57,084 nucleotides of DNA, taken from the IMG/VR virus record IMGVR_UViG_3300010262_000001, positions 1 through 57,084 of that record, one strand, 5' to 3'. This document shows, piece after piece, positions 38,293 through 41,004 of the stretch (within the stretch, counting starts at the first letter, position 1; every line of letters starts with the position of its first letter). This DNA comes from a virus. A program made the position numbers and the translations under genes. The notes beneath the pieces are model-generated. The model was given only the letters and a program-made list of their open reading frames with translations, did no database searches and was not told where the DNA came from.

Positions 38293-41004
38293 GTGATAAA
38301 GTTATATGATAAAACTGGTGAAGTTCTTATAGGGGAGTTGGAGGATTGTATTTCTTGTAATGTAACTGAGGTTAGAAATGGAATCTTTGATGCTAGATTA
38401 GTTTATCCAGCTATGAGATTAATTTCTAATAACTTAATAAAAGAAAATATTATAGTTTGCAAAGCTAGTGATATTCTTTTAAATCAAAAGTTTAGGATTT
38501 TTAATGTTAAGAAAAAACATTCAAACACTATTGAAGTTATAGCTAGACATATATCCTTTGATTTGCTTTATGACTTTATAGAAAATATAAATATAGTTAA
38601 CCAAAGCTGTGAGTATGCTCTTAATACTATATTTAGAAATTCACAGTTTTCTAGACACTACAAAGGGCACTCAGACATCATTAATGCTCAAGACTATAAT
38701 ATGTCTATGGCGAACTGTTTGAACGCTATAGCGGGCAAAGAAGGCTCAATTATAGATACCTATGGCACTGGTGCAGAGATATTGAGAGATAATGAAAATA
38801 TTCACGTTCTAAATAGGCGTGGACATGATAATAGTGTAACAATAGAATATGGTAAAAACCTAGAAGGTTTTGAGTGTACTGAGGATACCACAGATTTAAT
38901 AACTAGGATATATCCATTTGCGAAAAAATCTACTACAGATGGTGAGACTACTATTACTCTTAATGAGAAATTTGTTGATAGCCCAAGGATTAATCTTTAC
39001 TCACACCCTTATATTAGAGAGGTTGATTTAACTTCTAAATTTAAAGATGAAGATGAAATAAACCAAGCTAAATTAAAGTTAGAAGCGGAAAAATACTTTA
39101 TAGAAACTAAGTGTGATATTCCTAAATTAACATTTAATTTAAAACCTGTTCCACTTTCAAAATGTGTTGGATTTGAAAATTTAGGGGAAAAACTTTCTTT
39201 ATGTGACATAGCTACTATAAATCATAAAATATATGGAATAACTACTCAAGCTAAGGTTATTAAAACTGTATTTAATGTTCTTACAGATAGATACGAGAAT
39301 ATACAACTTGGTGATCCTAAGGCATCTTTAGGAGATTTAATTGGCGGGAATAGTGGTAATACTCCACAAGTAGGTCCACCTGGTCCTCCTGGTCCTCCTG
39401 GGCAAGATGGTAATATAGGAGATTTTCCTGATAGCTTACCAGCTATCCCACAACTAACTGCTAACGTATTAGGGTTTGCTAGTGTAGATTTATCCTGGAC
39501 TTATGAGAATAAAGTCTATTATAACTACCAAGTTTTTGCTTCTAAAACAGAAAACTTCGAGCCTAATATGTTTGATTTAATTTTTGAAGGTCAAGCAAGT
39601 TCATTCTTACATCAAGTTAAACCTGATGAGACTTGGTATTACAGAGCAAGAGCTGTTAATACTCACGGTAAAGCAACTGAATTATCTACTCAAGTGAAAG
39701 TTACTACTAAAAAAGTAGATGACTTTGAAAATTACTTCTCTAGTATGGCTATTCAAAATTTAGTCACTGGTATATTTACAGTTGATTATATGACAGCAGG
39801 TATTGTAAAAGGCAATTGGATAGATGCTAAGAATCTTTCTGTTACAGATGGTAATGGTAAAAGAACTTTAGACATAGATAGTTATGGGAATGTTAATTTA
39901 GATGTTAATAGTTTAAGTATAAGATCAAAAAAAGTTCTAAATGAAGAGGAGCTAAACAAAAATCTTGATATAAATTTATTAAAAAATACTCTTCCGCATA
40001 ATAATACTGAATGGCAAGCTTTAAATGGTTCAGTATCTTTTGTAACCAGTGATACAGAACTTAAGATTCATATAATAAACACAACTAAACAAGCTGATGC
40101 TATATTAATTCAAGAAAATGATAAAAATATTCTGGTTGATTGTGGCTATAATTCTACTATTAATATAGTTATCGAGTATTTAAAAAATAACGGAGTAGGT
40201 GAAATTGATTTATTTATAGCTACTCACGCTCATGCGGATCACGTAGGAGGGATAGAAGCTATATGTAACAACTTTACTATAAAAGAGGCTATATATAGAG
40301 AAGCAGATTGGAATATAGTTGACCAAATAGAACCAGAAGGTTGGGGAACTAGTGCAGTGCATAGAAAAATGCTTGAAGTATTTTTAGCTAAAGGTATAAA
40401 ACATAGAGAAGCTAAAATTATTGATGTAATAAAGATAAGTAATAATGGTGAATTAAGATTAATAAACACTACTAACGAAGTCTATGATGAGTATAATACT
40501 AGAAGTTTAGGTGTTCTGTATACTCATTACAATCATAAGATTCTCCTTGCTAGTGATATGACTATAGAAAGTGAAAAGCACTGTTTAGGAGAGATAGGAA
40601 AAATTGATGTTCTTAAGGTAGGTCATCATGGTGCAAATGGCTCAAACTCTGAAGCTTATTTAGAGGAAATTAAACCACAATGTGGATTAATTACAACTAT
40701 GAACATAGATCATATAGATAGAAAAAAAGCACTAGGATGCTTACAATGGGAAGGGATTCCTATTTATGATACTGGGACGAATGGAACTTTTGTAATTACT
40801 TCAACCAAAGAAGATATTTCTGTAAGTGGCTTAAATGTAGAATATAAATTAAAGAATCAGTGGTGGTATAGAAGGACTATAAATAATTTTGAGGAATGGG
40901 TTTATTTTAAATCTGATGGAAGTATAGCAAGGAATGAAACTGTAACAATAGGAGGAGGGCTTTATGAATTTGATGAAAATGGAATCTGTAAAGAACCTTA
41001 CTAA
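38293..41004 (+). CDS. Tail-associated lysin-like protein (Tal): prophage tail endopeptidase N-domain + collagen triplets + FN3 + metallo-beta-lactamase domain + cell-wall-binding repeat
   Basis: GPPGPPGPPGQDG (39373-); FN3-like LTANVLGFASVDLSWTY...WYYRARAVNTHGK; MBL ADAILIQENDKNILVDCG...IATHAHADHVGG...DVLKVGHHGANGS; C-terminal WWYRR...WVYFKSDGSIARNETVTIGGGLYEFDENG. Confidence 0.75.
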   Translation: MIKLYDKTGEVLIGELEDCISCNVTEVRNGIFDARLVYPAMRLISNNLIKENIIVCKASDILLNQKFRIFNVKKKHSNTIEVIARHISFDLLYDFIENINIVNQSCEYALNTIFRNSQFSRHYKGHSDIINAQDYNMSMANCLNAIAGKEGSIIDTYGTGAEILRDNENIHVLNRRGHDNSVTIEYGKNLEGFECTEDTTDLITRIYPFAKKSTTDGETTITLNEKFVDSPRINLYSHPYIREVDLTSKFKDEDEINQAKLKLEAEKYFIETKCDIPKLTFNLKPVPLSKCVGFENLGEKLSLCDIATINHKIYGITTQAKVIKTVFNVLTDRYENIQLGDPKASLGDLIGGNSGNTPQVGPPGPPGPPGQDGNIGDFPDSLPAIPQLTANVLGFASVDLSWTYENKVYYNYQVFASKTENFEPNMFDLIFEGQASSFLHQVKPDETWYYRARAVNTHGKATELSTQVKVTTKKVDDFENYFSSMAIQNLVTGIFTVDYMTAGIVKGNWIDAKNLSVTDGNGKRTLDIDSYGNVNLDVNSLSIRSKKVLNEEELNKNLDINLLKNTLPHNNTEWQALNGSVSFVTSDTELKIHIINTTKQADAILIQENDKNILVDCGYNSTINIVIEYLKNNGVGEIDLFIATHAHADHVGGIEAICNNFTIKEAIYREADWNIVDQIEPEGWGTSAVHRKMLEVFLAKGIKHREAKIIDVIKISNNGELRLINTTNEVYDEYNTRSLGVLYTHYNHKILLASDMTIESEKHCLGEIGKIDVLKVGHHGANGSNSEAYLEEIKPQCGLITTMNIDHIDRKKALGCLQWEGIPIYDTGTNGTFVITSTKEDISVSGLNVEYKLKNQWWYRRTINNFEEWVYFKSDGSIARNETVTIGGGLYEFDENGICKEPY

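Follow-up and report, generated by a model that had tools for sequence, protein, structure and literature searches.

We identified a putative host-surface-modifying enzyme on the tail of a bacteriophage in the IMG/VR virus record IMGVR_UViG_3300010262_000001, a complete record of 57,084 bp with direct terminal repeats, the whole of which is hereafter called the window. The protein in question is the 903-residue tail-tip or tail-associated protein (Tal), whose C-terminal part combines a metallo-beta-lactamase (MBL) domain of the branch that includes the pneumococcal phosphocholine esterase Pce with one pair of choline-binding-type beta-hairpins. On balance, we favor the interpretation that the tail tip thereby carries a metal-dependent phosphodiesterase acting on a phosphate-linked decoration of a wall polymer. 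Because the module is intact, metal-dependent and related to Pce, the virion, by analogy with that enzyme, probably trims such decorations during infection. The carrier of the gene is a siphovirus-type phage of Clostridium perfringens: a close kin of the window is the Clostridium phage phiCp-D, a C. perfringens phage from chicken faeces, whose counterpart protein (QTZ82903, annotated “tail protein endopeptidase”) is 91% identical to Tal over its full length. The Tal proteins of phages phiCP39-O, phiCP26F, CPQ4 and 17DYC are further direct homologs, encoded at the same gene position and 29–74% identical in the C-terminal module.

We assign the protein to Tal on account of its position after the genes for the tape measure protein (TMP) and Dit, and of its N-terminal region, which matches phrog_13289, the Pfam family Prophage_tail (PF06605) at residues 90–348 (E = 1.3e-19; 71 bits against a cut-off of 31.3) and the TIGR01665 “phage tail spike protein” model (136 bits against a cut-off of 26.75). 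Its reading frame opens with a GTG codon 5 nt downstream of a strong Shine–Dalgarno sequence, AGGAGGTG. The N-terminal domain is followed by a short collagen-like stretch, which gave no match to Pfam collagen and whose triplets are conserved in phiCp-D; these triplets imply that Tal is a trimer, and the stretch is probably the hinge of that trimer. Next in order is an FN3 domain, for which Pfam returned weak matches only (E = 0.02–0.04). In an AlphaFold2 (AF2) model of residues 345–600, it forms a beta-sandwich at residues ~375–474 (pLDDT ~90), the best Foldseek matches of which in the PDB are FNIII domains (TM 0.66–0.77). A stalk or linker then leads to the C-terminal module, and the region equivalent to it is variable or missing in other Tal scaffolds. 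A preliminary description, made from the letters of the DNA alone, had placed both the open reading frame and the start of the collagen triplets exactly, and the FN3-like module that it proposed is borne out by the structural model.

The MBL domain is detected by the Pfam Lactamase_B model at residues 599–795 (E = 4.3e-15; 56.6 bits against a cut-off of 22.7), and its HAHADH motif lies precisely where the preliminary description had located it. In an AF2 model of residues 560–903 (pLDDT 88.4, pTM 0.87), the MBL domain and the hairpin pair are modeled as a single rigid unit. A Foldseek search of the PDB with this model retrieved Pce (2bib, E = 2.7e-21), the MBL domain of ComEC (9ic4, E = 4.3e-20, TM 0.82) and CbpE (1wra, E = 6.5e-17), with RNase J and CPSF-73 ranked far lower. 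Domain search and structure prediction of the C-terminal part are thus in agreement on a Lactamase_B domain with a Pce/ComEC fold. The conservation of the module was assessed with an alignment of 18 diverse relatives that are 27–78% identical to the query, and the same alignment furnished the profile used in the comparisons below. The query possesses the full set of metal ligands (D616, H645, H647, D649, H650, N735, D755 and H778/H779), and all of these belong to the MBL residues that are invariant across the relatives, namely D616, D639, H645, H647, D649, H650, E680, Y734, N735, S738, D755, H778 and H779. In the HMMER alignment, the conserved residues of the query map onto the Pce segments THTHSDH, DDNSNSL, GGD and NHHH. 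From this invariance and this mapping, the binuclear site is seen to be complete and under selection; the preliminary description had let its enzymatic interpretation hinge on the ligands being complete on alignment, and not one of them is missing.

The placement of the module relative to Pce and ComEC is the key question, because the MBL domains of ComEC are Mn-dependent DNases (PMC8579336, PMC12455585), whereas Pce is a phosphocholine esterase that removes phosphocholine from teichoic and lipoteichoic acid via a binuclear center (PMC4929436). The two are themselves close, the authors of the ComEC study having named Pce as the closest structural homolog of the ComEC domain (PMC12455585). The 18-sequence profile matched Pce/CbpE in the PDB in one stretch covering profile positions 7–313 (E = 1.7e-37, 132 bits), and this match extends through the linker into the first choline-binding repeats of Pce; the same profile matched ComEC 9ic4 with 88 bits and in two pieces. 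When 179 MBL domains were placed in a maximum-likelihood tree, a Pce side, comprising the query, every hairpin-tail protein and Pce, was separated from a ComEC side with all 28 ComEC proteins and 94 other ComEC-like proteins (SH-aLRT 99). The split was repeated in a careful 69-row tree with a support of 100/99. There, the query falls within a 30-row group (97/87), the examined members of which have phage tail anchors, and Pce falls in a separate 5-row group (100/97), where the N-termini of two among the four other members resemble signal peptides.

The architecture points in the same direction. With Pce/CbpE of Streptococcus pneumoniae (PDB 2BIB, 1WRA, 12QJ), the phage module shares the alpha-beta/beta-alpha fold of the MBL superfamily; the ligand set H-x-H-x-D-H, Asn (part of a YN..SL motif in the query), Asp and His-His; a segment with a conserved Glu that is specific to the Pce side; and, as far as the single hairpin pair can be equated with the Pce repeats, the arrangement whereby the MBL domain passes directly into choline-binding-type hairpins that are packed on it. 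The segment, which reads DW...E.EW.T, is common to the query family and Pce and is missing from ComEC. The resemblance to Pce, which the preliminary description had drawn from the pairing of an MBL fold with cell-wall-binding repeats, is therefore corroborated by the profile scores, the tree, the shared architecture and, as described below, the lack of the ComEC serine. The receptor-modifying esterase that it proposed is the prediction best supported by these sequence comparisons. As an observation in its own right, the invariant Glu of this segment, E680 (40330–40332), has a counterpart in Pce (within SERLW) and none in the MBL domains of ComEC, which makes it a candidate substrate or metal contact specific to the Pce branch.

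The hairpins at the C-terminus score 20.3 bits on their own against Choline_bind_3, below the Pfam cut-off of 27. The family profile aligns them onto the first choline-binding repeats of Pce, repeat p1 included, and onto the repeats of LytB. Residues W857, K873, G876, A879, Y891, F893, G897, C899 and P902 of the hairpins are invariant in the 18 relatives. The alignment onto the Pce and LytB repeats is in keeping with the choline- or cell-wall-binding repeat that had been suggested for this end of the protein; there is, though, one hairpin pair rather than an array, and it is below the cut-off when taken alone. The module ends in the motif G-x-C-x-(N/Q/E)-P (40987–40998), wherein C899 and P902 are retained by 18 of the 18 relatives with no invariant partner Cys. 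The two residues could take part in an inter-subunit disulfide, furnish a metal ligand or cap the hairpin stack.

Beyond the window, the module is found in 61 records of the phage collection, 29 of which are Clostridium phages. In C. perfringens phages, it is mounted on three scaffolds: on Tal, in the phage of the window, phiCp-D, CPQ4 and the phiCP39-O/26F group; on a BppU-type baseplate anchor, in gp16 of PhiS63; and on a 597-residue protein of podoviruses. Metagenomic relatives display it on an anchor of the phi29 pre-neck appendage type (phrog_17212), the short relatives mostly have phage anchors and not signal peptides, and in the BFVD database the whole module is common to only two viral models. 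Among the Tal proteins of C. perfringens phages, the module is 73–89% identical, while the N-terminal domains are at most 29% identical or have no detectable similarity; therefore, this conserved module on unrelated N-terminal domains moves as a cassette. Such behavior is usual for host-surface-specific modules, and the BppU and appendage anchors are normal sites of modules that act on the host surface. The 597-residue protein is encoded next to the terminase gene in the 19-kb C. perfringens podoviruses of the Guelinviridae, where it is called a “hypothetical protein” and has a related MBL domain (e.g., Clostridium phage susfortuna, locus L002, 2220–4013); its relatives are annotated as “late competence protein”.

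The same cassette behavior could be explained if the module were mainly a receptor-binding adhesin for a wall polymer, with no catalysis or none that matters for infection. Tal proteins often have receptor- or carbohydrate-binding modules at the C-terminus, the exchange of a cassette between scaffolds is typical of receptor-binding modules, and hairpins of the choline-binding type are binding elements. However, all 7–8 metal-site residues are invariant among relatives down to 27% identity, which is unexpected if catalysis is dispensable, and binding and catalysis are in any case compatible, as Pce does both. Hence, we regard a role confined to binding as rather improbable.

We attach a somewhat lower probability still to the module being a ComEC-like DNase, which would attack DNA at the site of entry or the extracellular DNA of a capsule or biofilm matrix. 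Taken as a single sequence, the query scores slightly better against the ComEC MBL domain than against Pce (E = 2.7e-12 for PDB 9ic4 versus 6.6e-8) and matches the TIGR00361 ComEC_Rec2 model with 68.7 bits; several relatives are named “late competence protein”; and with the C-terminal MBL nuclease of ComEC/Rec2 (PDB 9IC4), it has in common the subfamily fold, as seen in the TM value given above, most of the metal ligands and a location facing the cell exterior. Against this, the profile and the tree put the module on the Pce side, and the serine of the ComEC motif HHGS is missing. This motif is present in 115 of the 121 ComEC-side proteins and in 1 of the 56 on the Pce side; the query has HHGA, with A781 occupying the position of the substrate-binding Ser of ComEC. 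In Moorella ComEC, the serine after the HH dyad is S728: the S728A variant is less nuclease-active, and the authors likened S728 to the serine of RNase J that holds the 5′ phosphate (PMC12455585). Moreover, ComEC lacks the DW...E.EW.T segment and has its MBL domain joined to a membrane channel and an OB fold, whereas a Pfam scan of the query protein found neither the competence channel (PF03772) nor an OB fold, nor is there another DNA-binding partner domain; the partner here is the wall-binding repeat. The MBL domain is also strongly acidic, with a net charge of −14 as in Pce, against medians of −4.5 for ComEC proper and −8 for the whole ComEC side, though this is a weak and uninformative test. 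On the Pce side, 52 of the 56 proteins have HxH(S/T)DH and almost never a Ser after HHG. The presence or absence of HHGS thus offers a simple annotation marker for distinguishing ComEC-like nucleases from Pce-like esterases, which could be useful for re-annotating the phage entries labeled “late competence protein”.

A further alternative, that the module is a tail-associated peptidoglycan lysin, draws on nomenclature: relatives go by “endopeptidase-endolysin” and “tail protein endopeptidase” in GenBank, and “endopeptidase” is part of the family name of PF06605. This designation is a misnomer, as PF06605/TIGR01665 is a structural tail-spike/Tal domain. No peptidase, amidase, lysozyme or transglycosylase was found in Tal, either by Pfam, NCBIfam, PHROG and PDB sequence searches with the whole protein or by fold searches with residues 345–903, and Pfam and PHROG scans found no peptidoglycan hydrolase domain in TMP, Dit or the downstream tail proteins. 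Given also the Amidase_3 endolysin that the phage encodes separately, we consider a lysin very unlikely. Accordingly, the “tail endopeptidase-type” N-terminal domain of the preliminary description survives as a Tal-family domain but not as a peptidase or any other peptidoglycan hydrolase, and its view that the protein does not act as a peptidoglycan hydrolase is sustained.

Equally little can be said for a virion-delivered counter-defense enzyme akin to the cyclic-nucleotide phosphodiesterase Apyc1, to which we give the least credence: PF23023 is among the precomputed Pfam labels of relatives, and there are weak matches to PF23023 (20 bits) and PDB 7u2r (E = 1.6e-4), but the former compares with a family cut-off of 50 and is confined to the generic MBL motifs at the N-terminal end of the domain (residues 603–660), the domain clusters with Pce, and its location is outside, at the virion tip beside a wall-binding repeat, and not in the cytoplasm. 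Beta-lactamase, RNase Z/J, glyoxalase II, Avs1a and Cas14 were rejected as candidates, their matches being to the generic MBL motifs 1–2 and far below the family cut-offs.

Several points also weigh against a phosphodiesterase modeled closely on Pce. The fold similarity of the module to the ComEC nuclease domain in the Foldseek comparison is about as strong as that to Pce. A 23-residue insertion that Pce displays after its first conserved Asp (chain residues ~33–55) is a gap in the phage profile, so that the shape of the pocket and the substrate may differ. In the tree, the module of the phage falls within the Pce branch as a sister to Pce rather than as an ortholog, and since it lies outside the Pce group, its substrate may differ from that of Pce on this ground too. 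Furthermore, the query module is only ~18–20% identical to Pce and ends in a single hairpin pair, in contrast to the ten repeats and the tail of Pce; the second hairpin is devoid of the canonical Trp residues, which makes a choline-type site only plausible. Unlike Pce, it also has no signal peptide, being carried instead at the C-terminal end of the Tal trimer.

With these qualifications, the favored interpretation of a Pce-branch phosphodiesterase at the tail tip can be developed into a tentative mechanism. The N-terminal 350 residues of the Tal trimer would build the tip under Dit, and the collagen helix, FN3 domain and stalk would hold out the C-terminal 320 residues, comprising the predicted binuclear metallo-phosphodiesterase and the hairpin pair as a rigid unit, such that three copies of the module would stand at the end of the trimer. 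Once the phage touches the cell, the hairpins might dock on an amine-bearing wall polymer, for which W857, W870 and Y891 perhaps provide a cage, whereupon the two-metal center would hydrolyze a phosphodiester in the polymer. The likeliest reaction would be the removal of a phospho-amine head group, in the manner in which Pce takes phosphocholine off N-acetylgalactosamine 6-phosphate; however, as the Pce insertion is missing, the bond cleaved could also be a phosphodiester of the backbone or of a linkage. In Clostridium, the known zwitterionic decoration is phosphoethanolamine and not phosphocholine, and the lipoteichoic acid (LTA) of C. perfringens is reportedly a polymer of N-acetylmannosamine (ManNAc) bearing 6-phosphoethanolamine. 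The phosphoethanolamine on the ManNAc LTA would be the prime candidate substrate. The outcome could be either that a path to the membrane is cleared or that binding is made reversible and non-productive binding is released, in the style of receptor-destroying enzymes.

A parallel might be seen in the pre-neck appendage of phage phi29, gp12, a teichoic-acid-degrading tailspike. In both instances, an enzyme, in the present case a predicted one, would be displayed on a host-contact appendage and directed at a phosphate-containing wall polymer; the two differ in fold (MBL versus beta-helix), and probably in the bond attacked. A broader and more speculative proposal, which we put forward as a possibility that is by no means the likely one, is that the phage-borne Pce-like modules make up a large radiation, specific to phages, of esterases that destroy or edit receptors and would remove zwitterionic phospho-amine groups, such as the phosphoethanolamine of the C. 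perfringens ManNAc LTA, rather than cut glycan or peptide bonds. They might then represent an undescribed mode of virion-mediated wall remodeling, with the swappable cassette determining which C. perfringens strains, distinguished by the decoration of their LTA or capsule, serve as hosts.

The protein is read here as a predicted Pce-branch esterase that the virion carries on its tail. Both the gene and its relatives were already present in PHROGs (phrog_7043, 14556 and 27548) and in GenBank under uninformative or wrong names, including “tail protein endopeptidase”, “endopeptidase-endolysin”, “predicted hydrolase”, “minor head protein” and “late competence protein”. A limited literature search, which does not exclude that such a paper exists, found none dealing with a phage tail that bears an MBL or Pce-like esterase, and the publications on phiCP39-O/26F, on PhiS63 and on the podoviruses do not discuss the MBL domain. 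Should the module be active, it would add to the virion-associated enzymes of the host surface a new chemistry, in which an enzyme of the MBL fold takes off a head group linked by a phosphodiester, and it would point to a decoration of LTA or of a wall polysaccharide as the receptor determinant of a large proportion of the phages of C. perfringens. Activity would likewise aid in predicting and matching the host range of these phages, which are under study for uses in poultry and food, might provide a phospho-amine-specific esterase for glycoanalysis, and would allow the widespread names “endopeptidase-endolysin”, “late competence protein” and “minor head protein” to be fixed.

Table 1. Coordinates in the window of Tal, its parts and the surrounding genes of the tail and lysis region
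Feature	Position	Strand	Evidence or remark
Tail tube protein	33173–33802		
Tape measure protein	34824–37865	+	phrog_1533, E = 2e-164; PF10145; no lysin domain found
Minimal Dit, 139 residues	37862–38281	+	phrog_33 Dit, E = 8e-9; Sipho_tail sub-threshold
Tal (tail-tip/tail-associated) protein gene, 903 residues	38293–41004	+	GTG start; 903 codons open
N-terminal Tal structural domain, residues 1–350	38293–39342	+	PF06605; TIGR01665; phrog_13289 “tail protein”, E = 9e-113
Collagen-like stretch GPPGPPGPPGQDGNIGDF, six G-X-Y triplets, residues 361–378	39373–39426	+	Read from translation
FN3 domain, residues ~382–474	39436–39714	+	AF2, pLDDT ~90; Foldseek FNIII
Stalk/linker, residues 475–588	39715–40056	+	AF2 monomer, low to moderate confidence (pLDDT 40–83)
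Predicted Pce-type MBL-fold phosphodiesterase domain, residues 589–850	40057–40842	+	Pfam; AF2; Foldseek; profile; tree
Metal-binding motif 2, H645-A-H647-A-D649-H650 (HAHADH)	40225–40242	+	Columns invariant in the alignment of 18 relatives
Other metal-site residues: N735 (40495–40497), D755 (40555–40557), H778-H779 (40624–40629)	40495–40629	+	
One pair of choline-binding-type beta-hairpins, residues 855–903	40855–41001	+	Choline_bind_3, E = 5e-4; pLDDT >90
Virion structural protein, 499 residues	40964–42463	+	phrog_21231; phrog_16267; overlaps 3′ end of Tal
Tail fiber, 1101 residues	42738–46043	+	phrog_23208; phrog_6782 “tail fiber”
Holin	46129–46554	+	
Amidase_3+SPOR endolysin	46609–47307	+	Recognizable peptidoglycan hydrolase of the phage; separate from the tail

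The tail module has an order of the siphovirus type, in which the genes for the tail tube, TMP, Dit and Tal are succeeded by those for proteins of 499 and 77 residues, the 1101-residue fiber, the holin and the endolysin (Table 1). Dit is unusually small; its Sipho_tail match of 22.5 bits lies below the cut-off of 24.2, and its matches to the PHROG Dit families are modest. The 3′ end of the Tal gene and the gene for the 499-residue protein overlap by 41 nt (40964–41004), an overlap that phiCp-D and a chromosomal prophage of C. perfringens (L005) share; its conservation suggests translational coupling of Tal and the 499-residue tail protein. Farther downstream, the fiber of the window phage is without a Pfam domain, and in its place phiCp-D (L001, 13435–16393) has an open reading frame of 168 residues and an 819-residue “polysaccharide deacetylase” protein, followed by an integrase. 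This difference, which lies downstream of the conserved genes for Tal and the 499- and 77-residue proteins, means that a second module for host interaction has been exchanged. Finally, the wall-binding part of the endolysin is a SPOR domain; the related prophage has Amidase_2 and SH3_3 domains instead.

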